A DNA stretch of 62,894 bases, filler included. It is 9 parts of 9 records of this genome, joined end to end, with 100 filler letters (N's around TTAATTAATTAA, not from the genome) between each part and the next. Parts side by side here need not be neighbours in the genome. Positions count along the whole stretch, not along the records: positions 44,637 to 48,141 come from SRR7504441_3037; 8 more parts are not named here. One strand, written 5' to 3'. Below are positions 7,454-58,539 of the stretch, in pieces; the first letter of the stretch is position 1; the number at the start of each line of letters is the position of its first letter. Made by a program: the position numbers and the translations under genes. A model generated the notes under the pieces. That model had not been told where the DNA came from. It saw only the letters and a list, made by a program, of their open reading frames with translations, and did no database searches.

Positions 7454-7553
7454 NNNNNNNNNNNNNNNNNNNNNNNNNNNNNNNNNNNNNNNNNNNNTTA
7501 ATTAATTAANNNNNNNNNNNNNNNNNNNNNNNNNNNNNNNNNNNNNNNNNNNN
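7454..7553. other. Artificial contig linker
   Basis: N-run + TTAATTAATTAA (stops in all six frames) + N-run, 100 nt. Confidence 0.98.
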
Positions 7554-17629: not shown

Positions 17630-17729
17630 NNNNNNNNNNNNNNNNNNNNNNNNNNNNNNNNNNNNNNNNNNNNTTAATTAATTAANNNNNNNNNNNNNNN
17701 NNNNNNNNNNNNNNNNNNNNNNNNNNNNN
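17630..17729. other. Artificial contig linker
   Basis: N-TTAATTAATTAA-N, 100 nt. Confidence 0.98.
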
Positions 17730-24701: not shown

Positions 24702-27700
24702 ATGTCTGCCACACCGCCGTCCAAGCTGGTGGGCAAGACCTGGGCCGCCATGTCCACGCCGTTCGGCTGGGCCACCGCCGCGATCACCTGGGCCGGCCGG
24801 CCGGACTCGGCCTCGCGCTCGCCCACGATCCACCTGCGATACCCCAACGTGTACGTCCGGTTCGACTCCTCCACCTTCGCCCGGGCGCTGGACGAGTGGG
24901 AGGACGCCGCCAAGTGGGAGGCGATCGAGAATGGGGTCGACAGTGATGCCCGGCTCCGCGGGCGGTCAGTGATCGAGTTGGCGATGGCCAAAAAGAGCGC
25001 CGACGTGCTCGCCGCCGTGTTCGAGACTGAGAAGAACCGGTGGGCTGCCCCGCGCTGGCGGCTGGGCTCACTGGGAACTGGCAGGCTGGCCCGGCACGGC
25101 TGGGACCGTTGGAGCGCCGTGGAGCCGTTCGCAGAGCTGTTCGTGGGCCTGTGCATCGGGCGACAGGAGGTGTTTGCGCTAGAGAGCGACCAGGCCCCGA
25201 GCGCCACCCCGATCGAGTTTGCGGCCGCGCTGGCCGACGTGCTGTCGCGCGCGGGAGTGCCGGTGCTGCACGCGCTGATCGAGAGGGCATCAGAGACCGA
25301 CGTGATTCAGCTGCTGCAGACCGCACATGCCTCACCACACAAGCTCAACCTGAGGGCGCTCTCCGAGGACAACACAAAGAGTGCCCCCGCGCGCCGGCAG
25401 CCGGCTCACTGGGGGCAGGCACTGTGCTTCACGCGGCGTGCAGTAAAGGCTATGCTGGTGCTGTGGCCCAGCTTCTGCTGGTGGGGCAAGACCTCGAGTC
25501 ATGTGACGACCCCATCGAGGTGGCCAAGTTGGACGGGCTCGGGCGCAGTCCGCTCGAGTTGGCCGTTGAGAGTGGCTCTGTGGAGACTACCAAAGTGCTG
25601 CTCGAAGCCGGATGCACCGTCAATCAGAAGATGGTCCGTGCGGCTGTGTTGGGCGAATCAGTCGAGCTGGCCGGACTGCTCGTGACCCGGCTCTCCGAGG
25701 GATCGGCCGCCGCTTCCGAGATGCTCAGGGTGCGCGCCGGCTGCGCTCGCTTGCTGATCTGGCCGGTCAGGGCGTGCTCGCCTCGCTGGCGGAGACGCGT
25801 GGCGACCCAGTGGCGGCCGAGCGGCTGGAGCGGGCGGCCGAGCTGCTCGTCTCCGGGGGTGCGCCTGTGGACGAAGCTATGCTCGATGCGGCGCTCGGGA
25901 CCGGGAGCGGGCGGGTGGTGCAAGTGCTGGCTGGCGCGGCGCCGGCGAGTGTGGACCTGTGGGAGTTTGGTCTGCGGTGCACGCGCTCGCTAATCCACGA
26001 CATGAAGGACAACCACGTGCAGCGCGAGGAGATCGACAGGCGGTGTGCCGAGGTGGCCAAGGAGCAGCAGGAGGTCCATGAAACGCTCTGGGGCAAGCGG
26101 GCCGAGCTGGCTCACTCGATGCTCGAGAAGAAGCTCGAGAAGCTCAAGCTCGACCACGCCAAAATCCCGTCCGCCGACGACCTGGCCAGTAGGGAAGTGG
26201 TCTGCGGCGAGCTGCTCAGCAGTGGCCGCCGTCCAGCACCGCGGAAGAGCGAGCAGCCGCGGACCGTCTCACCTGAGCTGGAGCAGGCCGAGAAGAAGCT
26301 GGAGCAGATCCTTGCGGACCAGCCTGCCGGATGGCCGTACGCCAGCCGGCTCGGGGCTGTTGTGAACATTGCCAAGGTGCATGGTGACAAGATCCTGCTC
26401 CAGCTGGCCCAGTCGCGCCAGCAGCTGGCAGTGAGCCAGGGCCCGAGCCACGACGCAGTGAGCGACCCGCTCGACCTCGGACTCGAGATGGCATTCCTGT
26501 CGCACCGGCGCACCGCTCGGCTAGCCGCCGAAGCTCAGCAGATGGCACCTCCGCCAGAGAAGGTGCTCATGTGCATTGTGGCTGGCTCGGGGCCCGGCTC
26601 TGCCGATGTGGCGCTCCGTCGGGCTGTCGAACGGACCTGTGTGTGCACAATGGTCGCAGAGCCGAGCCGGGCGGACGTAGCAGCGTGGTATGACATTCTC
26701 AAGGCGTTGCTGCAGGCAGGGGCCAACCCTACAGCTCCAAATCCGGACACTGGCATCTCAGCGCTGCAACATGCAATCAACAAGAAGGACGAGGCCACAA
26801 TTGTGTTGCTGGTGGAGCACGCGCTTCCAGAGTGCCAGCAGCTGGCGCTGGATGCGCTGGTTGACGTGCTTGCTGCCAATGAGGGTGGAGCTAGCAAGCC
26901 AGTCCCGAGCAAGCCATCGGTCGATGGAGCGCGCGACCAGCTGGCCCGAGCACAGCAGTCTGGTGACACAGCTGCAATCCAGAGAGCTCAGCAGGTGTTG
27001 GCCGAGGTGGAGCAAGCTGTAGACGCCGCCCGGGATGAGCTGGCCCATGCAGAGCAGTCTGGTAACCCCGCTGCAATCGAGAATGCCAGGAGGTCACTTG
27101 CGCTGGCCGAGAGCGGCGGTGTTGGAGGACCCAGCTCGCCTCAGCAGGCCACCAATGCGGCCACGGCAGCCTTCTTTGACATCACTGAGCACCACACGGC
27201 CGACAATGCTCTCGCGCACATGGGAGCACACGGCGGGACTCTGATGCTTCGAGCGTGTGAGAGTGGGGACCTGCAGATGATTCGGAAGCTGCTCCAACAG
27301 GGTGTGCCAGCAGATGCTGGTCCGGGCCTGCTGCAGTGCATCCTCGACCAAATGTACCACTGCCCCATGGAGCAGCAGCTCGAGATTGCTCAGGATCTGA
27401 TCCTGGCCCGGGCTGACTTGAACCAGGCAGACAAGTTCCACAAGTTCCCGATTCAGTCTGCAATTGACCTGGACAACGGCCCTCTGCTGCACCTGATGCT
27501 TGATGAGGGCGCCAACCCATCTGTTGGCAACATGTTGCACTACGTGTTGTCGAAGATGCTGCTCAATACCCGAGGATCCCCCAAGTGGGAGCTGCTGCAG
27601 AGTATGCTGGACATGCTGGTCGAGAACCACGCAGATCCACTTTATCATGGTGGAGAATTCGTCACAGGTAGTGAAAGCGACGGCTACTATCCACTCGACT

Positions 27701-30700
27701 TGGCTCTTGTGTTGGACAACAACCCTGTGGTCTGGCTTCTGAAGCTGTCTGGGGCGGAGGATGGTGAAAGCCACGCGTTGCATGCTCTGCTTTCTGAGCT
27801 TTGCACTGATCAGGAAGTTGAACTGGGTGAGTCGAACATGATCATGGCAAAGGAAACCGATGAGGTATGGACAAGTCACTCAGATCAGCACGGGGCGGTC
27901 TGGGACACTGTGAGGAAGACAAAGAAGTCCTGGGGAGCAGTGCAGAAAGCCTCTACCAGCGTGATGAAGCAAGGCGAGAAAGGCCTCAAGGAAGACGAGA
28001 TGCGGAACATGGAAGTGCCAGTGCATAAGATACAAGTCATTTCAGTCAAGACACAGGGCCATGTGCTGGGGAACCGACCAGCAGTTCCGATTGGAGGATG
28101 CTCACTGGACAAGTGGAAACGGAACAACCATGCGCTGCTCAAGAGCTCACTGCAGGCCAATCCAAAAGGCGTGCTGGTGGAGTTCACTGTGGACATCACA
28201 CCACTTGCGCCTGGCGATCCCACTGATACAATCAAAGTCTTCATGGTAAACAAAGACACTGAGTCACTCCCAGTGCCTCTGTACCGTGGGTACATCAGGA
28301 CCGAGAACGAATGTGGTATGCTCTCGAAGCGGCTAATGGATTGTCGTGTCACATACCTGGAGTCCAAATGTCTGCAGCTTGTGGAATCAGGCCACGGCCT
28401 CAAGGCTCCAAGTGGTGTACAAGTATCGCCACTGATGATGGCTGTTGGAGGCGGCGTGTCTGATGTAGCAAGAGCAATGGTGAAAGCAGATGGTGGTCAC
28501 CTTGGATTCAACGATGTGCAACAGATGCTCGCTGTGCTTCCCAAGGATGGTGATACTAAAGGGATGAGAGGTTCACATGGGTGCAATTCGGATCTTGTGA
28601 GCGAGTTGATTGCTGATGTGGTCGCCAAGTCAGAGATGGAGCCAGAGCAATTGAGCCAGCTGCTTGAGTCGAGTGTTAGGCAGTGCATGGTCGACCCAGT
28701 AAGGCAGTTGCTTTCAAAGGACTCTGGAATGGAGAACAAGCGGGCCCTGAAGGAGAAATCTTACCTGCACATGGCAATCGAGTGCCTTGAGCACTCACCA
28801 GATCTGGCAGCAGACTACAAGACCATCATAGGCTATCTACTCAATGGTGGAGCTGACCCGAACCAGATGCAACGGAGCAAGACGCCACTGGCTCTGGCTC
28901 TGGCACCGCCTTGCGATGACGACCATCTGGCGATTGCGACGCTGTTGATTGAGAGTGGAGCAAAGTTCACGGATAAGGACTTCATAGGCATGCTGGAGCA
29001 GTGGGATGCTTCACAAGATCCAAAACGTTCCGATTTGCTGGAGTACATGATCTCCGGAATGATCGAGAAAGGGGCCAACACGAGCGCAACGCTGCGCCGT
29101 GGTGGTGTCAGCACTACGCTGCTCGATGTCGCTCTCGAGAAGCAATCTGGTGTCATCCTGGCCAAGCTTTTTGAAGCTCATAAGGAAGCTATCATGTCCA
29201 ATAGCCCTGATTCAGAGCGACTGCTCGAACCTTTCTGCCAGCTGTTGGTTTCGCTTTGTCATGGACACGTGGCACTGTCAGGTGATGAAGATGGAAGCCG
29301 CAGCACAGAGCTTAAGGTGGAAATTGCCAGCACCCTTTCAAATGCCGGTGTGCCTGTGCTACACAGGGTCCTGGAGGCTGATCCAACTGGGGGCTCGCTG
29401 ATCAGCTTGCTGGACGAGATTACTATTGAAGAGGCCTCAATTGACTTGACAACGACCAATGAGACTGGCATGACCATCCTGCATCAAACATGTGCAGAGC
29501 ATAATTTGGGTGCTACAGAGAAATTGTTTGAGCTGAATGGGCAGCTTGCTGAGCTGAACCCAGATGGTGCCCTCCCAGTCAATGCCGAGGACAATGCAGG
29601 GCGAACTGCCCTGGGAATTGCTGTCGGGCTTGGCTCGTCTGAACTAGTTGCTATCCTGGCTGCTCCACCCCCAGAGGGCGGCGGCGCGCAAGTGACTGGC
29701 AGCCTGCTTTATCCAGCTGTGCTTGCAGGTCCTCGGTCAATGATTGAGGCATTGATTGCGGATGATGTGGCTGAGGTGCGCAGCGATTTTGGTCGCACTG
29801 TCCTCCATGCTGCAGCGTTGCGAGAGCAGCCTGAAGCCGGTGAAATTGCTCAGATGTTGCTTGATGCCGGTGTGCCACTCGAGGAACGTGATGTTGGTGG
29901 CGCGACTCCTCTCCTCCTTGCAGTACGAAATAAAAACACAGAGGTCATGCAAGTGTTACTTCAGCATGGGGCATCGCCAAGTGCTGCTGACAAGTTGGGC
30001 AACTCACCACTCCAGGAAGAGATGTCAAGCAGCGGAGGTCTTTCAGAGCTCGGAGAAGCCATGCTGTCGAGTGTGGGGCCAGCAACACTCGCCAATAACG
30101 AGCAAGTGATCTTGGAGGCTGTGCGCAACAAGAACTTTGAAGTCCTAGACAGACTAGGTGTAGATGGTGGCAGTGACATCAAACTCTACGGTGCCCCAGG
30201 AAAGCCTCTGGTGTGGTGGGCAGCGTTCTTTGGACATACAGACATGGTGAACAGCTGGGCAGAGAACCTGCCACGAGCGTTGGATTACAAGAGTAGAAAC
30301 AATGGGAGGAGGCTGTGGCATTACATGGCAATCTGGGGCACATCATTAGGCGCAATACCGTCGCTGCTCTCTCTGGAATTGCCACCTCAGGAAGGCCATT
30401 CGAAGTCCTCACAGGCACCGGATGAGATAAACCCGGTGTCAATACCTCTAGAGTTGGCTGCCAAGTATGGCCGTTCAGCAATGGTGGAGGCTCTTCTGCC
30501 TGAAGCGGTGTTGCCCGCGAACAGAAGATGGTCAAGCCTGGCAAACGAGTGCATGGAGAATGGCCTGGTTGGACTTCGGGACAAGTTCAATGCCTTAGCG
30601 GATCCTGAAGCACCTGCAACACAAAACTCGTTGGATGGCCCTCGTGATATTGCTAGTGCAACCGAGTTGGCCACCAGGGAGGGAGCACCATTCAGAGATC

Positions 30701-31724
30701 CAGAATTCCCATGTGGTGTTGCAGCTCTCGGGTCAAATGATTTAATCAAGCTGGCCTACAGTGAGATTGAATGGATACAGTGCTCAAAGCTGTGTGGTGG
30801 AGAAAGCTCAGTTCTATTCGCCAATATGGACAAAACACCCGGCAAGATGAACTTTGGCTCTCCATTTATATGGAACGCTCTTGCGCTGATGGATGGAGGT
30901 CAAATCAAGTCACTCTTCCAGGATGCTAGCAAGATTGCGATGGGAAAATACACCGTGAACGTGGCGTGGGAGGGAGAATTGCAGCCGGTGGTGATAGATG
31001 AGTGGGTGCCCGTGCTCGGTGCTGCAAATGAGCCGGAAGGAGCATTTGGTTCGATGGGGGCAGGCAATGAGATGTGGTCACACCTGTATCTAAAGGCAAT
31101 GGCCAAGCGTGCTGGAGGCTATGCTCAGCTGCTCAACCTGGACACAGACAAGATGTCACCATACACAAGATCCCTGGCCAACGAAGTGATGCCAGGCGCA
31201 GATCCACAGCAGATGGCTTTGTTGCTACCCGCACTTTCTGTGGCGCAGATGGTTCGGGCTACACTGCCAAACCAGGGTGTGAGCGACGTTGAACTGGTCA
31301 ACGCGGTTGTGGCTGACTTCAGTGGCGGCACTGCTGAGGCAATGGCGACTGGCGAGAAGGATCCAGCGGACACAGGATCTGAGCTGCCCACCTACGAGGT
31401 AATGCCCTTGCTTCTGTTCGAATGTGTGCTGACTTGCTTTTGTTTCAGGTGGTGGTGCACGAGGCTGACTACATCCAATTCTTCTTCTCGGGGCTTGTTC
31501 CCCACGATCTTCATGTAGTTTGCCGCTCCGCCTCTGGCAAGGAGCAAATGTATCCGATGGATCCTCAGACGTACGCAACTGCAGAGATCGATCTGGAAGA
31601 GTACGAATCTCCGTATGAGATTTCAGTCTCCTCCGAATTGGCAGCTCCGGCTGATCTCAAGGCGTTCACGACAGAGATCGACGCGGATCCGTCCAAAATG
31701 ACCATCACGCCCATAACCCGCTGA
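24702..31724 (+). CDS. Giant (>2200 aa) ankyrin-repeat protein with C-terminal degenerate calpain (CysPc) half-domain
   Basis: Many ankyrin motifs (GRTVLHAAA, GATPLLLAV, LLQHGASP). Calpain motifs FRDPEFP, GKYTV...VVIDEWVP and EMWSHLYLKAMAKRAGGY. Introns near 25381-25418, 25729-25770 and 31398-31448. Confidence 0.8.
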
Positions 31725-32188: not shown

Positions 32189-32288
32189 NNNNNNNNNNNN
32201 NNNNNNNNNNNNNNNNNNNNNNNNNNNNNNNNTTAATTAATTAANNNNNNNNNNNNNNNNNNNNNNNNNNNNNNNNNNNNNNNNNNNN
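32189..32288. other. Artificial contig linker
   Basis: N-TTAATTAATTAA-N, 100 nt. Confidence 0.98.
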
Positions 32289-36639: not shown

Positions 36640-36739
36640 NNNNNNNNNNNNNNNNNNNNNNNNNNNNNNNNNNNNNNNNNNNNTTAATTAATTAANNNNN
36701 NNNNNNNNNNNNNNNNNNNNNNNNNNNNNNNNNNNNNNN
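36640..36739. other. Artificial contig linker
   Basis: N-TTAATTAATTAA-N, 100 nt. Confidence 0.98.
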
Positions 36740-41020: not shown

Positions 41021-41120
41021 NNNNNNNNNNNNNNNNNNNNNNNNNNNNNNNNNNNNNNNNNNNNTTAATTAATTAANNNNNNNNNNNNNNNNNNNNNNNN
41101 NNNNNNNNNNNNNNNNNNNN
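41021..41120. other. Artificial contig linker
   Basis: N-TTAATTAATTAA-N, 100 nt. Confidence 0.98.
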
Positions 41121-42505: not shown

Positions 42506-42601
42506 GGCTCCGGCGACCTGGCGATACAGGTGTCAACGACTGCCGTTGTTTTCAGTTAGACTCCTACCGGTCTTATTCTGGTGGGCGCCTGGCAGCAGGA
42601 G

Positions 42602-43170
42602 ATGCCCACCTCCAGGTCCGGCAAGCCGCCGGGCGAGCGGGAATCGCGCGAGCAGCGGTCGGTGCGCAGTTCGAGCAAATCTGTCAGATCCAGCCGCAAG
42701 TCGCTCCGCTCCACCCGCCGGTCGCTGAGCTCCAACCAGACCGGCCGTGCCAGCCAGCAGATCGAGGAGGACCCCGAGGTGGTAAAGGCCGAGGCCCTGG
42801 CCAAGCAGCTGTGGAAAGAGGGCGAGACGCGCGGGGCCCGTGTGGCCGAGGAGGCGGCCAAGATGCTCCGGCTGCTCCGCAAGACCGGCAACGTGCTGCC
42901 GAGGCACCTGGTCTGCTCTCTGCCCCCGTGTGTACCTGCAGCCCGACCGAACCAGCCGATGGCGGTGTAGCGTGCTGGCAGCAGTGAGGCGCGTGGCATG
43001 GAAGTCAGGGCTGGCAGTTTACGGCGCGTGTCTGGGTGGGGATGTGTAATGTACAGTGCTGCTGAGGGTGGGTCGGCAATTGATGTGAGGGCAATTGCGG
43101 TCAGGTTGTCAGTTGGCTTTGGGCCTGGCCATTCTGTGCTGCTCTTTTTCCATGGGGGGTGAGTTCTTGT
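42602..43170 (+). CDS. 5' part of an unknown gene that runs into the antisense CobW gene
   Basis: Coding-like MPTSRSGKPP...EEDPEVVKAEALAKQLWKEG, head-to-head with the F-box gene. Possible RCC1-like fragments VSGWG and GPGHSVLL downstream. Confidence 0.4.
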
Positions 43171-43179
43171 GTGTAGTTT

Positions 43180-44536
43180 GGTGTAGGCAGCCAATTCGCT
43201 GTCGGTCACAAGGCACGATTCTAGTGCTGCTTTCATGGCATCATGGTCCATGTCTTGGCCAATGACGACGAGCTCAATGCGACGATCGCCCCATGGCTCC
43301 TCCCAATGTGGTGGCTTTTCGACCTGTGCCTTTGCTGCTGGTTGACTTGCGTCCTTACTCATGCTTGACTTGCGTCTATCTGACTTGTTCTCTGCGTGTC
43401 TTTTTTGCGCGCGCCCAATCATTTTGGCATGCACTTGCTGCTGGAACTGCTTTATCTCAAGCTGCGAAACTGTGCCATCAGTGGCCCACAAAATATTGCT
43501 TTCGGTCACAGTGCATTGGATAGCTCTTGTCTTGCCGATGTAGAATTGCGACCCAATCCTCTCATACTCAAAGCCACACGCCTTCAGTGCCATCTGGAAG
43601 TTGTTGCAGGGCTCCTGAAGTGCAGTAGCAACCTCAAAGTGGACCGATTGCTTCAACAAAGATGCATCCCAGGGATCCCCCCAGGTCACAGCGAACGTAT
43701 GGCCAGCCAGTGACCCATGGCCTTTTACCCAGTGGCTCTGCAGGTCCCAGTGGCTTGCAAACCAGACCAGTCCCTTTGCACGTACGACGCGTAGCGCAGC
43801 TTTGTGACCAGCCTCGGACAGCCATGGCACGGACGGTGCAGCGCACTCCTTCTGCTGCGTATCGAGTTTGGGTTGTTGAACGACAAGCTCTGCATGCGTT
43901 TCCATGATCTGAGCGAGTTTGGTGAAGCGTGCCTGGTGGAAAGGGCGCCGGCTGCGGAAGGTAATGGACGAGATACCATACTCAACCGTCTCGGGGATAT
44001 GCTCTCCAACGCGAGCCTCCTTCAGCCAATCAGGATGCTGCTCTGCTCGGGACAGCTCGAACAAGCCTGTGCCAAGCATCCGCTGTGGTTCTACACAGCC
44101 CCAGGTTGCTTCGATGAGCTCAGCAGTGGGATTGAATTTCTTGATGATAGTTCGGAGCCTCTGGCGCCCTGTGTCGTCCATCAAGTCCATCTTGTTCATG
44201 ACAATAACGTTGGCAAACTCTAGCTGGTCACAGAAGAGTTGCGCCACAGTCCGCTCGTCCTTCTCACTGGTTTGCCAACCACGGCTCTTGAGCACATCCG
44301 CTGCATACAGCTCGTCGAGGAATGAGGAACCGTCAACCACCGTCACTAGTGTATCGAGCCGCACGACATCACCGAGCGAAGTGCCAGTCTTATCCCTGAA
44401 AGTGAAGGTTTCCGCAACAGGCAGCGGCTCAGAGATGCCACTGCTCTCGATCAGAATGTGGTCAATGCCGCCTGGCTGCATCGCAAGCTTGGCGAGCTCG
44501 ACGAACAGGTCCTCGCGCAGGGTGCAGCAGATGCAG
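43180..44536 (-). CDS. COG0523/CobW-family (G3E) metal-chaperone GTPase, 5' truncated
   Basis: CICCTLREDL, ILIESSGISEPLPVAETF, DQLEFANVIVMNKMD, RRPFHQARF, VVRAKG and WGDRRIELVVIG. No proper stop follows the domain, so the 3' coordinate is approximate. Confidence 0.88.
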
Positions 44537-44636
44537 NNNNNNNNNNNNNNNNNNNNNNNNNNNNNNNNNNNNNNNNNNNNTTAATTAATTAANNNNNNNN
44601 NNNNNNNNNNNNNNNNNNNNNNNNNNNNNNNNNNNN
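44537..44636. other. Artificial contig linker
   Basis: N-TTAATTAATTAA-N, 100 nt. Confidence 0.98.
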
Positions 44637-46547
44637 GGCTCTGGCTCCGGCTCTGGCTCCGGCTCCTCCATCACAACAGGCTGCGGCGGGGAGATAGGAA
44701 TCTGTGCACACACAGCTGTCAGGGCGCGGCCTGGCAAGGGAGCGCACGTCGCCCCATCCGGTCAAAATCACACGGTACTCGGTGATCTCCTCCTGGAGAG
44801 AAATCCAGTCGGCGTTGAGCTTCTCCCTCTGGAGCTCCTCCACCTTCTTCTGCAGGTCGTTTATCTTGTCGTCCTTGTTCACCAGGTCGCCCAGCTGCCC
44901 GTCCTCCGAAGTCCGGTAGCCTGCCATCGCTGCCTCGCACGCACGGAGAGCCTTGGCCACGTCTTTCTCGGCCTTGGCGCGCTTCGCCTTGACCGCGTCG
45001 ATGTCCTCGAGGTATCCCTCGAGCACTGGCTTCTCGTTGGCCACCGCCGAGCGCAGTCGTTCGTACTCTATCATCAGCTCGAGCTCCCTGCTCCCTCCCC
45101 CTCACAGGCTGTCGGCCATCACAGGCTCTCACCGGGCGCGCAGAGGGATCAGCTGGTCCTCCAGGTCCTTGAGTTGGGCCTGCAGCTCGGCCACCCGCCG
45201 CATCTTCTCCCCGTGGTCGCCGTCCGCGTTCTTGGCGTCTATCAGCTGCTCTATCACCATCTTGAGCGCCTTGATCTCAGCATCCAGGTCGTCCCTCTCA
45301 GTTGTCACCTGCCCACGATCCAGCCCGCCAACGGCAGCCGGCCACCTCGGCCAGCTCGTCCTTGACGGCCAGCTCCTCCTTGCGCGCGGCGGCCTCGCCT
45401 TGGATCAGCTCTGCCAGCCGGTCGCTCTTGGCATTCCATTCCTCGCTGTTGTCCGCATCGATTTGCGCCTCCCGCTGGGCCAAGGCCTCGGAGAACTCCT
45501 TGCGCAGCAGCGCCCGGAGCGCGGCGATCTGCTCGGCCCCGGCGATGTTCCAGTTGGCGGTCGGGTCCAGTCCGTGCTCCCGCATCCAGAGCTCGTACGC
45601 AGCCTGGTCTTGACTGCAGCGAGCACCAATCAGCCGGCAAGCCCGGCGGGCGGGCGCACCGGAAGTACTCGGTCTCCTCTTCGATCTTGACGTTGAGCCC
45701 CGGCAGCTGGCCGTTCATCATCTCGCATTCCTCGCCCTTCTGAACCGCCTTCCTGTGCATGTCGACAACGCCAGCTTCGAGCGAGCCGATTTCCCGTCTT
45801 AAATCGTCGCCCTGCTTAATCGCTGCCGCCAGAGCCTCGCGCAGGTCCTCCTCCTCCTCCTTCACCCGCCGCCGCTTCTCTACCATGTCAGTCCGCTCGG
45901 CCTCGGCCTGACCGCACGCTCGCCAGAGCCGGGACTGATCGCCGCACCTTGGGCCGCTTGGCTGCCACGTCCTTGGCCTCCTTCTGCAGCATGGCCAGCC
46001 GCTCCTTGAGCTCCTGGACCATCGAGAGGATCCTGGCCCCCAGATCCCGCCCTCCGGCCAAGCACTCTGGCTACCCGGCCTTGTCGGCTGCCACTGCGTC
46101 GATCTTGTCTTGGATGTCGTTGTTCTCGACCTGAGTGGCGGCGGTGCGCTCGTTCACGTCGAGCTCCACCTTGTCTGCCGCCCCCGTCATCTAGCCGCTT
46201 GAATCTAGCCGGCGCTCACCGAGGATCCTCTGCTTCGTCTCCTCGATCTGCTCGGCTAGGAGCCGGAGATCCTGCCAGCCGGGCTCGAGCCGGCCAGGCC
46301 GGGCGGCGGCACCTTGCAGAACTTAATCCGCATCTCGAGCGTGTAGTTGTTGACGTCCATGTCCCGCTTATCCTCGTACCTGACCGCGTCGCTCAGCCCC
46401 GCCCGCCCCGGCTGCCCACCGGGTGATGGTGCGGCTCTTGAGGGCCGGGGACGGGGTGCGCCCACGGCGCGCGCTTCCTGGCAGCCCAGGGGCTCTGCGC
46501 GGCACAGCGGCGAGCCGGGGGGGAGGGGCACCTCCATCTTTGGGCAT
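44637..46547 (-). CDS. Lamin-like intermediate filament protein (nine short introns; tail truncated)
   Basis: Spliced head/coil 1A RTPSPALKSRTITR|YEDKRDMDVNNYTLEMRI. Coil 1B IDAVAADKAGI...KIEEETEYFR. Rod end ISLQEEITEYRVILTGWGD|IPISPP. Confidence 0.7.
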
Positions 46548-46640
46548 GTTCAAAGCGGCACAGCGGAGCGGGGCGGGCTGTTCAAGTGCAGCTCGGCAAC
46601 GGCCAAACCGTCAACGTCAGTTGCAGGGCTGCAGCAAACT

Positions 46641-47785
46641 ATGGCCTTCTCAGCGGCAAAGACGTACGAAGACATTGCGCTGGCCGCCGATCAGGCCGAC
46701 CAGAGCTTCGGGCGCAGCCTGGACGCCTGGAAGTCGCGCTGCCGCCGGCTGGGCGACTTTGACTCGCTGCGGACCGACGCTCGGGCCACCGAGTACCTGG
46801 ACATCTTGAACGAGCTCGCGCTGCAGGAGACCGCCTGGGGCAGCTTCGTGAGCCAGGCCGTCCTCCGACGCGACCCGCAGGAGCTCCATGAGGCAACCTC
46901 CGCTGGCAAGGTGCCGCCAGGCCGCTGGGCCGGTCGACCGCGGGGCAGGAATGGGACGCGCGGGTGGCAAACGCGCTGCGCTGGTGCGGCGAGGTCGGGA
47001 TCACTGCGGAGGATAGCGAGCAGAACAAGATTCTGGTGCGGTCGGCCCGGCGGCCGGCCCGAGCTTCGAGTGCAGGCCCGGACGCTCCCAGCCTGGCGGC
47101 GGGCCTTTCTGGCCGGATCGTACCATGATCGCGAACTGGCCGCAGCCGCCGAGCGGAGCGCGCTGTACGTGGCCGAGTTCCTCTGGGGCCATCGGGAGCG
47201 GGCGGCGCTCCAGGGTTCTCAGAGGTGCCAGGCGCTCCCGGGCTGGCTGAGTGTAGGGCAGCCACAAGCTGGCAGCCGAGGCCAACGCCCGGCGAGAGAA
47301 CAAGCTGCGGGTGCACCGACTGATGGCGGCCGCCCCCCGGCCCGAGGCCCGAGTTCACCTCCGGCGGGGCGAGTTTGATCCATACTGGGGTGACCCTGAC
47401 ACGCTCGGATCTGCTGGGTTTGCCGCGTACGATGTGGGCGAGGGTGCGCCCTCGTACGCCCGATGGGACTTGTGCTGGCGGGCTCGTGTGGACGACCAGC
47501 TGCGGCACGGCGGGTGCAAGACTGCTTTCCCAGACTTCACCACCGAGGTCTGTTGCCCAGCAGCTCGGGCTGAGAGCTGGGCCAGGTGCTGCTCTCGACG
47601 GAGGACCCCAAGCCGCTCACCGCCCGCTCGCGCGGCTGCCGGGGCTGGCTCGACAACGCGATGCTCAACCGGGGCCGGGCAGTCACCGACAAGCAGCTGG
47701 CCAGCCGGTTCCGAGTGGACCCCGAGAGCCCGACGCCGCACATGCGGCGAGGACCGTTCCCGGTGCTGATCTCGCGCTCCACCTA
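46641..47785 (+). CDS. Multi-exon hypothetical protein
   Basis: Coding-like exons (MAFSAAKTYEDIALA..., FDPYWGDPD..., WLDNAMLNRG...) separated by short GT-AG introns. Confidence 0.5.
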
Positions 47786-48141
47786 AAGCGTTGTTAGGCA
47801 AAAGCTGTTAACTCTAGAGTATTTTAAAAATAAATACAGCTGACTCGGAGTGTGAGTAGTCTGAGTACTGGTACTTCTTTGAGTAGTCCTCGGTGCCGGC
47901 CACTCCCACGCTAGTTCGAATGCTATCAAAACATCAAGCGATCCAAGTCGGTCGCAAGGCCTATGAGACCAACAGGGGCGTGACAATGTTGGACTCGTTT
48001 GACCAGACACTGGGCACTCACGGGAGTTCGTCGAGAAGATCAAGTCGACCGACGACAACATCTCGGCGGTGTTCGCGATCAAGAACGACCTGAACGCTCC
48101 GAACGCTCGTACGCGCGTCGGCGTGGCGGGGGTGGACAGGA

Positions 48142-48241
48142 NNNNNNNNNNNNNNNNNNNNNNNNNNNNNNNNNNNNNNNNNNNNTTAATTAATTAANNN
48201 NNNNNNNNNNNNNNNNNNNNNNNNNNNNNNNNNNNNNNNNN
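48142..48241. other. Artificial contig linker
   Basis: N-TTAATTAATTAA-N, 100 nt. Confidence 0.98.
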
Positions 48242-53052: not shown

Positions 53053-55092
53053 TTATGTTTTGGTTATTTTGAGGTGTCTGGAAACACACGCTTTAAGTGC
53101 ATCTTGCGCTTCGATTGGAGTGACCGCGAACATATTCGGTTGATTTGGCCCTCCCGCCCTAGCCCAATCGTGGGCAACTTGCGAGACAGCTTTGAGTCCA
53201 GTGATTTTGCACTTGAATGTGGTCTCTACATACACCGTGTCCCTTTCTTCAGGGCCATCTTCCTGCCTATTCCATCGTCTGCAACTGAGCGCCCAGTCAT
53301 GGGCGCCGCATGCCGCGCGTTCTAGATCTGCAATATCAAATGTCATGACACCGCTTGCATCTTCCATCAAGATCAAGCTGCCATCCGGTCTGCGACCCAG
53401 GACAGGGCAACCATTGAAGCTTTGGGGGCAAGCTCCGAAAATCAGATCCAAATCCTTCGGCACATCAACCGACACAAGTCTCGATAGATGGACTCGTCCG
53501 ACTGACTGCTCATCAGAGTCCCTGCGTACCACCACGTCGCCTTTTCGATTGGCACTGCTAATCACCACACCAGTGTCGCCCAGTGCCATCTTTCCCTCAA
53601 GATCTGCCATAGCCTGGACGTGCGAGCCGCTTTGTATATTGCGGAACCAGATGTCGCTTGGTCGCACTGCTCCATGTTGCGCAAAGAGATGTTCGTCCAG
53701 TTCACAAGAGTACCAGTTAGTGCCAAGTCGATCGTTGCTTTCGCGCCAGCCTGGAAGTAAAGGTAAATCCTGAGGACGATGTTTGGCTAGAGGTGCAGCC
53801 AGTAGCCCGAGGAAGTACAGCCAACTGGCCTTGGCGCTGGGCTGCCCTTCAAACCCCATTTCCTGACAAGTAATAGCAGCTGCCGCCTCGCTGTGTGCCC
53901 GCCACTTCAACTGCACGCAAGCACAGGTCGATATGAACTTCGGGCTTTGCAGCCTGAGCAGCAGGTTGGTGAACAGGTGTGGATCCTCCTGAAACTTTGT
54001 GAACGGAGATGCTGCTTTCGCTGTCGTCAGCAAAAGCGGCTCGATGCATTCCCAGCAGACCTTTAGTGGCGATTGCTCTTCAAACTTGCCGATGTCGAGT
54101 TGAGCAAACAGTGAGGCCACGCGAGTCCCAGCCTCCTCCTTGCACTGCCGTAAAAACTCACCGAGCTCACTTGGCCCTTCCAGCCTCGGAATGGCCTCCA
54201 GCTCGCCCGCAAAGTTTTCAGCCTGGAACTGCCCGGCGTCCTCCCAGCCCTGAGCTACAAATCCTGCTGGGATGCGCAGCACGATGCAGTCTATCAGCAT
54301 CGAGCTAGTGTGACTCAGAACGCAATCAGCCACCTGAAGCAGCTCAAAGTTGTCCAGTCCTGCACCGCTCGGCTCCAGCCGAGCCGGCACACCCGCCTGG
54401 CCGCACCACTGGGCCATCGAATCAAGCAGAGCAGGCGAGCTACGTGGATGCGCTCTGACAAGCACTGTCACCGCATCCTGGGCTCCGGCTGCAAACCTGG
54501 CCACGCCATCCAGAACGGCCTTGAGCATCTGTATGGCCGTTTCAGCCGTCACCCGGAGCCCAGGCTCCTCTGGACAGGCCAAGTAGCACACGAGCAGCTG
54601 GCCGGGATCACAGCAGCTGAGACGGGCAGACGCCGCCGCGTCGGGAGTGAGCCGCGGCCGGAGCGCGAGCTGTTCGAGATGTGGGCTGCCGGCCACCACC
54701 ACCCTGGGGTGCAGCCCCCCGGCCACGAACAGCTGGGTCACCCGCCGGGCGCACTGCGCGTCGGGCACCAGGTACAGGTTGGCCGTGTGCTCGGGCTCCA
54801 CCGGGGTCAGTTTCTGCTGGGCCACAAGGCCGGCCGGCAGGTCGAGAACCTGTATGGTCGGCAGCCCGAGCCGGTTGGCCTCGGCCAGCCAAGGCCGCTC
54901 GGCCTGGTTGGTGCTGCTCCCGGCCACCAGGCAGCCGCACCCACAAAGGTCGACCGGCCCTGGGGCCGCCCGGAGGTCGACCAGACGGCAGGCCCGGCCC
55001 GCGGCCCGCACACGGGCCACCACTGGGGCCAGCGCGTTACGCGCGCCCGGGTCGTGGGCCACGCAGACGCAGCCGCAGCCGTCCGGGTCCAT
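53053..55092 (-). CDS. GT-B-fold glycosyltransferase-like domain fused to an F-box-like motif and an unknown C-terminal domain
   Basis: AHDPGARN, GLPTIQVLD, VVAGSPHLE, VRAHPR and LLQVADCVLSHTSSMLID, then DPHLFTNLLLRL...CACVQLKWR. Likely start at 55092. Confidence 0.6.
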   Translation of the reverse strand: MDPDGCGCVCVAHDPGARNALAPVVARVRAAGRACRLVDLRAAPGPVDLCGCGCLVAGSSTNQAERPWLAEANRLGLPTIQVLDLPAGLVAQQKLTPVEPEHTANLYLVPDAQCARRVTQLFVAGGLHPRVVVAGSPHLEQLALRPRLTPDAAASARLSCCDPGQLLVCYLACPEEPGLRVTAETAIQMLKAVLDGVARFAAGAQDAVTVLVRAHPRSSPALLDSMAQWCGQAGVPARLEPSGAGLDNFELLQVADCVLSHTSSMLIDCIVLRIPAGFVAQGWEDAGQFQAENFAGELEAIPRLEGPSELGEFLRQCKEEAGTRVASLFAQLDIGKFEEQSPLKVCWECIEPLLLTTAKAASPFTKFQEDPHLFTNLLLRLQSPKFISTCACVQLKWRAHSEAAAAITCQEMGFEGQPSAKASWLYFLGLLAAPLAKHRPQDLPLLPGWRESNDRLGTNWYSCELDEHLFAQHGAVRPSDIWFRNIQSGSHVQAMADLEGKMALGDTGVVISSANRKGDVVVRRDSDEQSVGRVHLSRLVSVDVPKDLDLIFGACPQSFNGCPVLGRRPDGSLILMEDASGVMTFDIADLERAACGAHDWALSCRRWNRQEDGPEERDTVYVETTFKCKITGLKAVSQVAHDWARAGGPNQPNMFAVTPIEAQDALKACVSRHLKITKT

Positions 55093-55160
55093 CGGGGTCC
55101 CCGACTCTGAATAACGGACGCGAGAGCTGTTCTCAACCCACAACTGAACTCCACAGACAG

Positions 55161-58100
55161 ATGGTTTCTCGACTGACTCGAGTGCTTGGGCGTGCTGTCG
55201 CCCTTCTGGTCGGGGCCTCAGCGCTTCCATTCGACGCAGACTGGCGGTTCCAGCGCGGGGACAACTCCGGCTGGTCACAGCCGGGGCTCGACGACTCCGG
55301 CTGGCGACGGCTGGACGTGCCGCACGACTGGGGGATCGAGGATCTGCCACCCCGCGACCAAGACCCGGTGGCCCCAGTGCTCTCGGTCCGCTACGGCCGG
55401 TGGCGGTTCCACAAGGGGGACAACTCAAGCTGGGCCCAGCCCGGAGCCGACGATGCTGACTGGGAGCAGATCGAGGGCGGGCAAGACTGGCGGGTGGCCG
55501 CTAAGTATTCGGACAAGGCGGCCGTCGGCTGGTACCGCCGGACCGTGGACGCCAACGAGCTGCTGCGCGGCTCGAATGCCACCCGGCTCGGGCTCGGGGT
55601 GGTGTCGGGCACAGATGAGACGTATGTCAACGGACAGCAGGTCGGGAGCACCGGCAGGTGGGGCCAACCCGGCTGCGCCGATTACGAGACCTGGCGCAAC
55701 TACCTGATCCCCCAGGGCTTGCTCAAGCCGACCGGGAACGTGGTCGCGGTCCGGGCATTCACCCAGGGCGGTGCCGGCACGGATGCGGACGGCACCTACC
55801 CCGGTGGCCTGTATGACGATCCAAAGCTCAAGGATGCGGATGTGCGCTCCGGGCCGTTTGACGCCTCGTCCTCGCTCAATGGCCGTTCGTACGGATATAC
55901 TGTGGGTGGCACATCGTGGTACAGGAAGCATTTCAAGCTCGAGTGCGGTCAGTGCGCAGGATCGGTGGTTCGGCTGCAATTCGACGGAGTATACATGAAC
56001 TCAGACATGTGGATCAACGGACATTTTCTGGGCAACCACCCGTATGGCTACACCTCGTTTGCCTACCAGCTACCCGCGGAGGCGCTGGCTGCGGCTGGGC
56101 AGGAGAATGTTCTGGCTGTTCGTGTGAACAATGCGGGTCGGAACTCACGGTGGTATTCGGGCTCGGGCATCTTCAGGCACACCTTTCTCAGTGTGCTGCC
56201 CGGGCTGCACTTCGGACTGTGGGGACTGCACGTTGCCACCCCAGCCATCAGCCCATCTGCAGGTCAGGTCGCGCTTGCTGTCACGCTCGAGAGCTCTAGC
56301 ACCAACGCGGCTGGCACCGTCAAACTCACTCTGCTCACATCGGATGGCAGCACCGCAGCTTCCGGCTCGATGGCGGTGCAAGGCGCGGGCACCAGCCGGA
56401 TGAACCTGACTGTGGCCAAGCCAGCCCTCTGGTCCCCCGACTCGCCCACTCTATACACTGCGGTTGCTGAGTTGGAGACCACTCAACAGGATTACGAAGA
56501 GCCTGCTGTGCTGCGGAGCACATTCGGCTTCCGGACAATTTCGTTCGACACGAGTGATGGGTTCAAAATTAATGGGGTAACCACCAAGCTTTACGGCGGC
56601 TGCTTGCATCATGACAACGGGCCTCTGGGGTCCAAGGCAATTGATCGTGCCGAAGAACGACGAGTGCAGCTCCTAAAGGCCAATGGATACAACGCTATCC
56701 GCACCAGCCACAACCCAGTGAGCCCGGCGTTCCTCGACGCGTGTGACCGGGAAGGCGTGATGGTGATGGACGAAGCATTCGACTGCTGGGCTGAAGGGAA
56801 GAACACGGATGATTACCATGTCTGGTTCAATCAGTGGTGGCAGCGCGACATTGCGAGCATGGTGCTGCGTGACAGGAATCACCCGAGCGTGATAATGTGG
56901 TCAATCGGCAACGAAATTCCAATGCGCGCCACCCAGGCCGGGTACAATCTGTCGCACGTACTGTCAGATTATGTGCGGAGCCTAGACAGTGGCTCTGGCA
57001 GAGCAGTCACCTCTGCCTATCCTGGTGTCTCTGACGCTGCTGATCAATTCTTCGCGCCACTGGAGGTAGCCGGGTACAACTACTCGCCTCAAAGGTACGT
57101 CTCAGACCACAAGCGGGTGCCTTCTCGGGTGATGGTTGGGACCGAGTCGTTCCCGAAGGACTCGTTCCAGATGTGGGATCTGGCCTGGCAGAACAGCTGG
57201 GTGCTGGGAGACTTCATCTGGACCAGCTTCGACTATATTGGCGAGTCCGACATTGGGTTCGAGTCGGAGTCTGGCGACGTGGACCAGTGCAGCCAGGAAC
57301 CTTTCCCGTGGCATATCAGCTTCTGCGGCGACATCGACAACGCTGGCCAGCAGAAGCCACAAGCGTACTACCGGCGGGTGCTGTGGGGTGTGAGTACTAT
57401 TGAGATGGCGGTTCACCAGCCGCTCCTACCTGGACACACGGAGGCAGTCGGTGGCTGGGGCTGGCCGGAGGAGCGGCAGAGCTGGAGCTGGCCCGGGTCT
57501 GAAGGCCAGAACCTGACGGTCAATGTTTATGCTAAAGGCGGTCCGAAGCACTCCCCCAACAGCAGCTGCACCCAGGTTGAGCTGTACCTCAACGACAAGC
57601 TTGTCAACCGGATGCCTGTTGGGTACAGCCAGCAGTTTACTGCTTCGAGCCAAGTCACCTACACCCCAGGAAGCATCAAGGCCGTCTGTCTTGGCGGTGC
57701 CTCCAATGCAGCCCTTGGCGTAACGGAGTACAAGACTGCTGGGCCTCCTGCCCGGATCGAGCTAGTAGCCGATCGCTCGTCCATTCAGCATTCAAGGGAC
57801 GATTTGTCCTATGTCACCGCCAAGGTGCTCGATGCCAACGGCGTGCTTGTGCCCGACGCGGCTCTCAAGTTGGAGTTCTCCCTTGGAAGTGGCTCAGCCG
57901 GAGAGATCGCGGCCGTCGGCAATGGCGACCCTCAAGATATTTCGAGCCATCAGGCCAACTTTCGCACCACGTGGCGAGGCAAGGCTCTCGTCGTTCTTCG
58001 GCCCGTCGGAGATAAGCCAGGCTCGATTAGACTGAGCGCCGCCTACTCGGGGGGGCACTCGGGGCTGCCGACAGCCACCATTGAGGTGACTACGAGTACC

Positions 58101-58283
58101 AAAGAGGCCACTGCCGATCCCGCATGTTGCTTCTGCTCCGCCGGCGGCGAAGGAGATGGCGCGTGCCTCACGGTCGACGCCTGCAGGGCGCGTGCGCTGG
58201 ACGGGTACAAGTGCAGCCCAGGCGACGGTGGGTGCAAGTGGGGGCCCGGCGGCGCTATCGACCCGCAGCCGGCCTGCCATTAG
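55161..58283 (+). CDS. Secreted GH2 beta-galactosidase-like glycoside hydrolase
   Basis: Signal peptide MVSRLTRVLGRAVALLVGASA. Motifs FDGVYMN, SRWYSGSGIFR, NAIRTSHNP, WSIGNE (acid/base) and GTES (nucleophile). Cys-rich tail; intronless. Confidence 0.93.
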   Translation: MVSRLTRVLGRAVALLVGASALPFDADWRFQRGDNSGWSQPGLDDSGWRRLDVPHDWGIEDLPPRDQDPVAPVLSVRYGRWRFHKGDNSSWAQPGADDADWEQIEGGQDWRVAAKYSDKAAVGWYRRTVDANELLRGSNATRLGLGVVSGTDETYVNGQQVGSTGRWGQPGCADYETWRNYLIPQGLLKPTGNVVAVRAFTQGGAGTDADGTYPGGLYDDPKLKDADVRSGPFDASSSLNGRSYGYTVGGTSWYRKHFKLECGQCAGSVVRLQFDGVYMNSDMWINGHFLGNHPYGYTSFAYQLPAEALAAAGQENVLAVRVNNAGRNSRWYSGSGIFRHTFLSVLPGLHFGLWGLHVATPAISPSAGQVALAVTLESSSTNAAGTVKLTLLTSDGSTAASGSMAVQGAGTSRMNLTVAKPALWSPDSPTLYTAVAELETTQQDYEEPAVLRSTFGFRTISFDTSDGFKINGVTTKLYGGCLHHDNGPLGSKAIDRAEERRVQLLKANGYNAIRTSHNPVSPAFLDACDREGVMVMDEAFDCWAEGKNTDDYHVWFNQWWQRDIASMVLRDRNHPSVIMWSIGNEIPMRATQAGYNLSHVLSDYVRSLDSGSGRAVTSAYPGVSDAADQFFAPLEVAGYNYSPQRYVSDHKRVPSRVMVGTESFPKDSFQMWDLAWQNSWVLGDFIWTSFDYIGESDIGFESESGDVDQCSQEPFPWHISFCGDIDNAGQQKPQAYYRRVLWGVSTIEMAVHQPLLPGHTEAVGGWGWPEERQSWSWPGSEGQNLTVNVYAKGGPKHSPNSSCTQVELYLNDKLVNRMPVGYSQQFTASSQVTYTPGSIKAVCLGGASNAALGVTEYKTAGPPARIELVADRSSIQHSRDDLSYVTAKVLDANGVLVPDAALKLEFSLGSGSAGEIAAVGNGDPQDISSHQANFRTTWRGKALVVLRPVGDKPGSIRLSAAYSGGHSGLPTATIEVTTSTKEATADPACCFCSAGGEGDGACLTVDACRARALDGYKCSPGDGGCKWGPGGAIDPQPACH

Positions 58284-58439: not shown

Positions 58440-58539
58440 NNNNNNNNNNNNNNNNNNNNNNNNNNNNNNNNNNNNNNNNNNNNTTAATTAATTAANNNNN
58501 NNNNNNNNNNNNNNNNNNNNNNNNNNNNNNNNNNNNNNN
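58440..58539. other. Artificial contig linker
   Basis: N-TTAATTAATTAA-N, 100 nt. Confidence 0.98.

Follow-up and report, generated by a model that had tools for sequence, protein, structure and literature searches.

The window (the whole stretch of DNA that was analysed, 62,894 nucleotides, filler included) consists of nine short, unordered contigs. One of these, 3.5 kb long (44637-48141), carries on its minus strand a split gene that starts with an ATG at 46545-46547 and whose frame, once nine introns are removed, stays open up to the N-gap at 44636. On sequence comparison, this gene is a member of a small, lineage-restricted family of coiled-coil proteins from marine protists. The architecture common to the family leads us to regard it, with a little more confidence than doubt, as a lineage-restricted, probably farnesylated nucleoskeleton protein and, by analogy with known laminas, as a candidate for an undescribed kind of nuclear lining. 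By ancestry it would be either an extremely diverged lamin or a convergent protein. The gene is transcribed and spliced, all ten of its GT-AG introns being bridged by RNA contigs. A first-pass annotation, made by a model from the letters alone, had described it as a divergent lamin-like intermediate filament (IF) gene with an extended coil 2. Published work is cited below by PMC number.

Splicing of the gene and conserved signals of its family

The nine introns of about 40 nucleotides (nt) proposed in the first-pass annotation are 37-46 nt long, all begin with GT and end with AG, and leave a spliced model of 509 amino acids up to the gap; the peptides quoted from the gene in that annotation are all present in the spliced translation. 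Contigs from marine metatranscriptomes, drawn from four runs in two studies (X1-X3; X5) and aligned at 93% likeness, skip exactly these nine introns, and a single X2 contig of 1078 nt lacks six consecutive ones. At intron 44702-44747 the shorter flank of the joint is just 27 letters long, and one contig supports both joints at the two 5'-most introns. In line with this, the 509-residue model aligns with six relatives (P0049, P0002, P0003, P0006, P0008 and P0010) at 76.8-48.3% identity and shows no insertion or deletion at the nine junctions, and single-exon genomic fragments of relatives break at the places of introns 1, 3, 7 and 8. Near-identical sequence is found in public marine metatranscriptomes, where 15 of the 20 rows holding the stretch are recorded as RNA and the best row contains 0.43 of the sampled words.

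The first exon needed a correction. Its frame is open, as annotated, but it hides a tenth, in-frame intron of 54 nt (46478-46531) that had been read as coding and that is removed by the same X1 RNA contig on which the two 5'-most joints depend. The head becomes 18 amino acids shorter and the model 491 amino acids long up to the gap, and with this intron taken out the head lines up with those of the relatives.

As to intron places in the wider family, the fragments P0030, P0032, P0025, P0027 and P0033 have some in common with the window gene: one behind T-I-T-R, one behind Q-R-I-L and one at either side of the T-T-E-R-D-D exon. The second intron of the window gene is not present in the exon fragments of those relatives, and group B has an extra intron within the conserved N-W-D-V / P-T-A-E module.

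Read from the N- to the C-terminus, the family has a short basic head with a serine/threonine-proline (S/T-P) site, a helical rod, a further S/T-P site, a disordered, strongly acidic tail, a basic cluster of the K-R-K-R type and, 14 residues on, a C-x-x-M end, that is, a CaaX box with methionine in the last position. In the window gene the head carries T-P-S-P about 23 residues N-terminal to the first helix, and this motif is conserved in P0002, P0003, P0049, P0061 and the open reading frame (ORF) of locus L003. Behind the rod, an S/T-P site falls within 15 residues in the window gene and its relatives (12 of the 14 sequences that are long enough), taking the full S-P-I-[RK] form in group B; it is missing from P0021 and from P0014, the latter diverging as if read into an intron. 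The rod is therefore flanked by S/T-P sites, as had been proposed.

The C-x-x-M end occurs in nine of 51 family sequences, which are all nine that reach the tail with a natural C-terminus, and each of these nine complete tails has a K[KR]x[KR] cluster within its last 45 residues. The box itself varies (C-N-I-M, C-V-V-M, C-T-I-M, C-A-I-M, C-R-L-M, C-S-I-M), and the distance from cluster to cysteine is exactly 14 residues wherever it was measured (7/7). The tails are 55-98 amino acids long and acidic, with a net charge of -5 to -38, and the segment between cluster and cysteine, A-G-D-Q-D-x-D-x-x, is conserved across groups A and B. Complete ORFs are available for P0002, P0008, P0010 and L003; complete members measure about 520-566 amino acids, the longest of these, L003 (566), having both the head site and a C-V-V-M end.

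The tail of the window gene itself is lost, as first annotated, where the contig ends at 44637 inside a GAGCC-type repeat. A tblastn search with the tails of relatives found neither the missing exon on any other contig of the window (best match outside the gene, E 0.07) nor a second copy of the gene in the window, and none of the RNA contigs extends beyond 44637, because the reads are cut at the repeat. The tail of the window gene nevertheless starts in the same way as in its nearest relatives, P0049, which runs on to the basic cluster and is cut 8 residues before its expected end, and P0001, which reaches C-N-I-M. From these sequences we infer that the missing tail would resemble theirs. The first-pass annotation had named a signal for nuclear localisation (NLS), an Ig-like lamin tail domain (LTD) as well as a CaaX box as the features to look for at the 3' end. 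In the relatives, the basic cluster and the C-x-x-M box are found in nine out of nine complete tails, whereas Pfam detects no LTD in nine relatives at E<=10. The S/T-P sites on either side of the rod, together with the K[KR]x[KR] cluster and C-x-x-M box of the relatives, make the architecture lamin-like, as that annotation had it; the function that goes with these signals is a prediction from sequence.

With respect to distribution, a search with exon 9 returned 11 proteins at E<=0.001 (among 592 longer candidates). A family profile built from an alignment of ten relatives (A1) was then compared with 1.84 billion representative proteins and gave 37 matches at E<=0.001, of which 32 are, by inspection, family members, mostly fragments. 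The other five are three long bacterial-type surface coiled coils (Big_2, BspA-LRR, cohesin), a ZZ-finger protein and an uncharacterised piece of 126 amino acids. The members come from marine and environmental metatranscriptomes and metagenomes and from one EukProt transcriptome (P0003), and a metagenome scan for the family yielded four short loci, none of them from the organism of the window. One member bears the source label 'chromosome segregation ATPase', which is a generic label for coiled coils. In a tree the family falls into three groups: group A (100/100), which includes the window gene with P0049 and P0001 as its nearest relatives; group B (P0007-P0010 and P0018); and group C (P0015 and P0011). 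Searches with P0015 and P0019 for distant or complete members of group C returned the known family only, plus P0061 and P0062.

Some members are incomplete or joined to other sequence. In P0003, peptides at both ends are presumably translated sequencing adapter, so that its true N- and C-termini would be lost. In P0011 a family piece is joined to a CHAT domain, and in P0020, by sequence inspection, to Sel1-like repeats and a MYND-type zinc finger; both joins are probably gene calls that run through introns or into neighbouring genes on genomic contigs, and not true fusions.

A literature search, mostly of listings and abstracts, found no paper describing such a family and none linking Telonema or Telonemia to a lamin homologue, the 'lamin' text in the hits that were read standing for 'lamina' or for trypanosome proteins. 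The combination of 'lamin homologs' with EukProt likewise returned nothing in that search.

The rod and its relation to intermediate filaments

An AlphaFold2 model of the A1 alignment has a mean predicted local distance difference test score (pLDDT) of 70 and a predicted template modelling score (pTM) of 0.30. For P0002, the AlphaFold2 model gives a rod of about 430 amino acids made of four helices, at 48-132, 139-230, 244-331 and 339-475 (85, 92, 88 and 137 amino acids), with breaks at a conserved R-P-K (133-138), at an H-G-L-D-P-T-A-N-W module (231-243) and at a D-G-D-H loop (332-338); pLDDT stays under 50 in the head and throughout the tail, neither of which contains strands. The dimensions given in the first-pass annotation agree with this model: a coil 1 of about 184 amino acids corresponds to helices 1 and 2, which span 48-230 (183 amino acids), and a coil 2 some 80-85 amino acids longer than that of lamin A fits helices 3 and 4, at 244-475 (232 amino acids). 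In a crude heptad scan the repeat is strong over most of the rod and weak at its start and over about 80 residues around the conserved module.

Comparison of the monomer model with the PDB by Foldseek gave no match at E<=0.001, the best rows being generic helical hairpins (HP0958, Rad50, SMC, axonemal proteins); this outcome is uninformative, because the query is a lone long helix model with pTM 0.30. In the ESM Atlas the best score was 0.76, below the recognition mark and to unnamed clusters only.

The statement that this is an IF gene, taken as a claim of homology, does not hold up against profile searches. Pfam Filament (PF00038, gathering score 40 bits) matched none of eight exons, two of nine relatives (17.0 and 6.8 bits) and one of seven further pieces (13.7 bits, fifth among 27 coiled-coil families). 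The hidden Markov model check suggested in the first-pass annotation thus ends with three of 24 sequences or pieces matched, all below the cut-off. As a control, the three unrelated coiled coils of bacterial type that had come up with the family profile reach 46.5, 48.4 and 57.4 bits on Filament, and each of them also matches 74-128 further coiled-coil families; the weak Filament matches of the family therefore carry no weight. The PDB contains lamin, vimentin and keratin fragments, and yet searches of its sequences at E<=10 with the A1 profile (10 matches), P0002 (3) and exon 9 (3) returned no lamin, vimentin or keratin chain; nor is there a lamin among the 37 profile matches to the 1.84 billion representatives.

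The motif that closes the rod is more suggestive. IF rods end in a consensus that extends, towards the N-terminus, as E-I-A-x-Y. The motif of the family is invariant, and with this extension it matches 6 of 12 positions exactly at the end of the helix. Against the shorter published consensus YRKLLEGEE (PMC3258179) it matches Y, R, L and G, or four of nine. At eight end offsets a score of 6/12 was reached by 623 of 200,000 plain shuffles and 318 of 200,000 pattern-preserving ones (p about 0.002-0.003). However, the test was framed after the match had been seen; the rod also reaches 6/12 away from its end, and with every position allowed 764 of 5,000 shuffles do so. In group C the rod ends in Y-R-E-I-L-D-G-W-K-E, which is nearer to the IF consensus. 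The rod-end motif alone thus makes a suggestive resemblance to IF proteins at the level of sequence. In terms of the refutation named beforehand, namely rod-end motifs no better than generic coiled coils and absence of the LTD and CaaX box, the strict lamin or IF claim fails on the profile tests and on the LTD, absent in the relatives, while the rod-end motif still retains some interest.

These observations bear directly on the view that the family is a true, extremely diverged member of the lamin/IF family, from which the Ig-like tail domain would have disappeared, in which the NLS would have been relocated and whose rod would be longer by about 80 residues in its middle part. Besides the rod end, rarely equalled in shuffles at the rod-end offsets and closer still in group C, this view draws on the three sub-threshold Filament matches, which are mutually collinear, their offset growing from about 55 over the first half to about 130 at the rod end and so implying some 75 extra mid-rod residues, and on a +4 register shift of the stutter type about 65 residues before the rod end in the crude heptad scan. 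Lamins without the Ig fold do exist, for example in ascidians and some insects (PMC4448529), and lamins occur in Rhizaria, stramenopiles and dinoflagellates (PMC5630835). On the other side stand the Filament scores of 6.8-17 bits in three of 24 sequences scanned, compared with 46-57 bits for unrelated coiled coils, the lack of any IF or lamin protein in the three PDB searches or among the 37 profile matches, and the post hoc nature of the motif test. The helices of 85, 92, 88 and 137 amino acids are also unlike the 1A / 1B / 2 layout, the first break coming only after 85 residues and not after a short coil 1A as in IF proteins. In addition, the protist lamins of Koreny and Field were all found by their LTD and verified by a reverse search that returns lamins (PMC5630835), and the family fails in both respects. 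We hold descent from lamins to be doubtful. As it is a claim about ancestry, it would in any case be compatible with a nucleoskeleton function.

Gene model and surroundings

The features of the gene and the artificial joints of the window are collected in Table 1. Because the window is made of nine unordered short contigs, adjacency across a linker is meaningless.

Table 1. Coordinates of the gene model and of the artificial linkers, in positions of the window
Feature	Position	Strand	Basis or remark
Artificial linkers, N44+TTAATTAATTAA+N44 (eight, identical)	7454-7553, 17630-17729, 32189-32288, 36640-36739, 41021-41120, 44537-44636, 48142-48241, 58440-58539		
Exon 1a with start codon	46532..46547	-	First ATG of open frame; X1 RNA contig links 46532 to 46477
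Tenth intron, 54 nt, GT..AG, in frame	46478..46531	-	One X1 RNA contig
Exon 1b, basic head with T-P-S-P site (46446-46457)	46420..46477	-	Head motif kept in relatives
Intron 1, 40 nt, GT..AG	46380..46419	-	RNA joint X1
Exon 2, invariant rod start, YEDKRDMDVNNY block	46313..46379	-	Translation and alignment of relatives
Intron 2, 41 nt, GT..AG	46272..46312	-	RNA joint X1
Exon 3, rod	46220..46271	-	Translation and alignment of relatives
Intron 3, 45 nt, GT..AG	46175..46219	-	RNA joint X3; exon fragments P0030 and P0032 of relatives stop at same place
Exon 4, rod	46075..46174	-	Translation and alignment of relatives
Intron 4, 42 nt, GT..AG	46033..46074	-	RNA joints X1, X2
Exon 5, rod, ending at conserved RPK helix break	45948..46032	-	Alignment; break corresponds to residues 133-138 of P0002
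Intron 5, 40 nt, GT..AG	45908..45947	-	RNA joints X1, X2, X3
Exon 6, rod, strong heptads	45660..45907	-	Translation and heptad scan
Intron 6, 46 nt, GT..AG	45614..45659	-	RNA joints X1, X2, X5
Exon 7, nearly invariant non-heptad module W-M-R-E-H-G-L-D-P-T-A-N-W (45538-45588) and weak-heptad helix	45346..45613	-	Columns W227 to W239; P0002 231-243 non-helical
Intron 7, 37 nt, GT..AG	45309..45345	-	RNA joints X1, X2, X3, X5; same border in fragment P0025
Exon 8, rod, third helix break at D-G-D-H loop	45133..45308	-	Translation and AlphaFold2 model
Intron 8, 45 nt, GT..AG	45088..45132	-	RNA joint X2
Exon 9, last helix, ending in invariant rod-end motif E-I-T-E-Y-R-V-I-L-T-G-W (44754-44789)	44748..45087	-	Alignment columns
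Intron 9, 46 nt, GT..AG	44702..44747	-	RNA joints X3, X5; short side 27 letters
Exon 10, partial: S-P site after rod (44687-44692) and start of P/E-rich tail, cut by contig end	44637..44701	-	

Upstream of the gene, 93 bp (46548-46640) separate its ATG from that of a divergent gene on the plus strand (from 46641), which suggests a compact bidirectional promoter. The first 245 codons of the divergent gene, read unspliced, match no Pfam family at E<=1e-5. One X1 RNA contig is without 2 nt at 46562, within the 5' untranslated region, perhaps through variation between strains or through error.

Other contigs of the window carry long uninterrupted ORFs: one of 1982 amino acids on the plus strand (25570-31518), with ankyrin repeats followed by a calpain protease domain; one of 1210 amino acids, also on the plus strand (54651-58283), for a family-2 glycoside hydrolase with all accessory domains; and one on the minus strand (42556-44535) for a GTPase of the CobW/COG0523 type, cut by a linker.

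Proposed role, alternatives and comparison with known systems

The succession of S/T-P, rod, S/T-P, K-R-K-R and C-x-x-M is the combination found in lamins and in Dictyostelium NE81, and for this reason the family is read as a farnesylated nucleoskeleton protein. In lamins, such signals serve nuclear import, farnesyl anchoring and mitotic loosening driven by cyclin-dependent kinase (CDK) 1 (PMC3258179, PMC5630835); in NE81, an S/T-P-x-R/K site before the rod, KRKR and C-L-I-M belong to a protein that sits at the inner nuclear membrane, depends on its CaaX box for anchoring and disassembles in mitosis (PMC3258179). By the same token, the rod of the family would form coiled-coil dimers that assemble further, the basic cluster would direct import into the nucleus, and the C-x-x-M box, once farnesylated, would anchor the protein at the inner nuclear membrane, where it would form or join a lamina. 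Phosphorylation of the flanking S/T-P sites by a mitotic CDK would then loosen the assembly.

Several points weigh against this reading. The NLS and CaaX box of the window gene are inferred from relatives at 48-77% identity, its own tail being missing. A subclade of nine sequences inside group A (100/100) stops four residues after the rod without NLS or CaaX, so that the tail signals are not universal in the family. The basic cluster lies beside the CaaX box, whereas in lamins it lies beside the rod, and it could instead belong to a signal for targeting to membranes. The head S/T-P site conforms to the minimal consensus only. Finally, none of the sequence searches (Pfam, PDB, the profile against 1.84 billion proteins, ESM Atlas) ties the family to any nuclear protein.

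The tail-less sequences (L001 at 1380-1535, P0004, P0005, P0006, P0051-53, P0057, P0059 and P0060) end in C-G-P-Q or V-G-T-E after the rod-end G-W and have no acidic tail. In L001 what comes after the stop resembles untranslated sequence, and the remaining 118 nt contain no exon for a tail. The subclade may be a real paralogue or isoform, or a truncation artefact.

Apart from descent from lamins, discussed above, the same architecture could have arisen separately. The family, specific to protists, would then be a fourth, independently evolved nuclear-lamina system beside lamins, plant NMCP/CRWN and trypanosome NUP-1/2, converged on CDK sites at either end of the rod, K-R-K-R and a farnesyl anchor without the Ig domain. 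We consider this rather unlikely. In such a case the tail-less sister clade may, by analogy with the cytoplasmic IFs of animals, have left the nucleus.

A location at the cell periphery has also to be weighed, in the form of a farnesyl-anchored coiled-coil mesh under the plasma membrane or peripheral vacuoles, such as the telonemid subcortical lamina. A basic cluster near a CaaX box targets some proteins to the plasma membrane, as in signals of the K-Ras4B type, and the tail-less subclade implies that the rod can do without nuclear signals. In Telonema, moreover, the multilayered subcortical lamina is unique and the cytoskeleton complex (PMC6844682). The tail of the family is nonetheless unlike a polybasic membrane signal: the 14 residues between cluster and cysteine are acidic (A-G-D-Q-D-x-D), as is the tail as a whole (net -5 to -38), and K-R-K-R with acidic residues behind it agrees with a classical monopartite NLS and is the one used by NE81 and lamins (PMC3258179). 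A cortical or membrane-skeleton protein is, on these grounds, improbable.

Spindly is a coiled-coil protein with a disordered C-terminus ending in a CaaX box, and the family, with about 550 amino acids of coiled coil, a similar C-terminus, S/T-P sites that suggest mitotic regulation and a weak match of exon 6 to HAP1_N (E 0.0084, 15.8 bits, cut-off 33.9), might be taken for a farnesylated protein of the Spindly, CENP-E or CENP-F kind that acts in mitosis or as a motor adaptor and is recruited by its farnesyl group to kinetochores or the spindle. This is very improbable, given that the Pfam matches of full-length relatives up to E=10 include no Spindly, HOOK or BICD family, that the HAP1_N match is one of many generic coiled-coil ones, that methionine in the X position with an adjacent NLS is the lamin pattern, and that inspection of the alignment (no formal test) revealed no conserved N-terminal adaptor motif.

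A farnesylated nucleoskeleton protein of this kind could bear on the fate of the lamina in lineages that appear to have no lamins. Although lamins are regarded as ancestral to eukaryotes, they seem to be missing from many lineages, and whether the lamina was lost or replaced there, or the lamins diverged beyond recognition, is an open question (PMC5630835, PMC7889174). In this regard, Koreny and Field pointed out that a lamin homologue would be difficult to detect if its LTD were divergent or absent (PMC5630835). The present family keeps every short lamin signal, but IF profiles do not see it, and it lacks the LTD, the sole domain that led to all the published protist lamins.

Among known systems, metazoan B-type lamins share with the family an S/T-P site, a long helical rod, a second S/T-P site, an NLS of the K-R-K-R type and a CaaX box ending in methionine, which is the farnesyl type (PMC5630835, PMC4448529), and the invariant rod end partly matches their IF consensus. 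The family differs from them in having no Ig-like lamin tail domain, in placing its NLS 14 residues from the cysteine instead of just behind the rod, and in a rod of about 430 amino acids with four helices and a conserved non-heptad module, which is not recognised by the Filament profile and whose reverse searches return no lamins. NE81 of Dictyostelium discoideum, also a protist protein, carries a CDK1 site ahead of its long rod, a K-R-K-R NLS and a C-L-I-M box, and was itself first recognised by its architecture, with very weak likeness to the IF rod-end consensus (PMC3258179). Its rod measures 370 amino acids compared with about 430 in the family, and its location and assembly were shown by experiment, whereas those of the family are predicted.

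Lamins without an Ig fold, known from ascidians (Ciona), one Glossina and one Acyrthosiphon, resemble the family in combining a rod with a CaaX box (PMC4448529, PMC6406624), and their existence means that a working lamin can do without the LTD. Their rods are plain IF rods that group with those of other lamins (PMC4448529), while that of the family is unrecognisable as IF. Drosophila Kugelkern, a non-IF protein that reaches the inner nuclear membrane through an NLS and farnesylation, sets a precedent for lamin-like targeting without IF ancestry; it is fly-specific, has a short coiled coil and is compared with the family by description. Plant NMCP/CRWN and trypanosome NUP-1/NUP-2 are much larger proteins that are not known to carry a CaaX box. 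They resemble the family as lineage-restricted coiled-coil lamina proteins whose homology to lamins is not detectable, and for them, too, both divergence from lamins and convergence are under discussion (PMC5630835). Compared with them, the family is lamin-sized and retains the CDK, NLS and CaaX signals.

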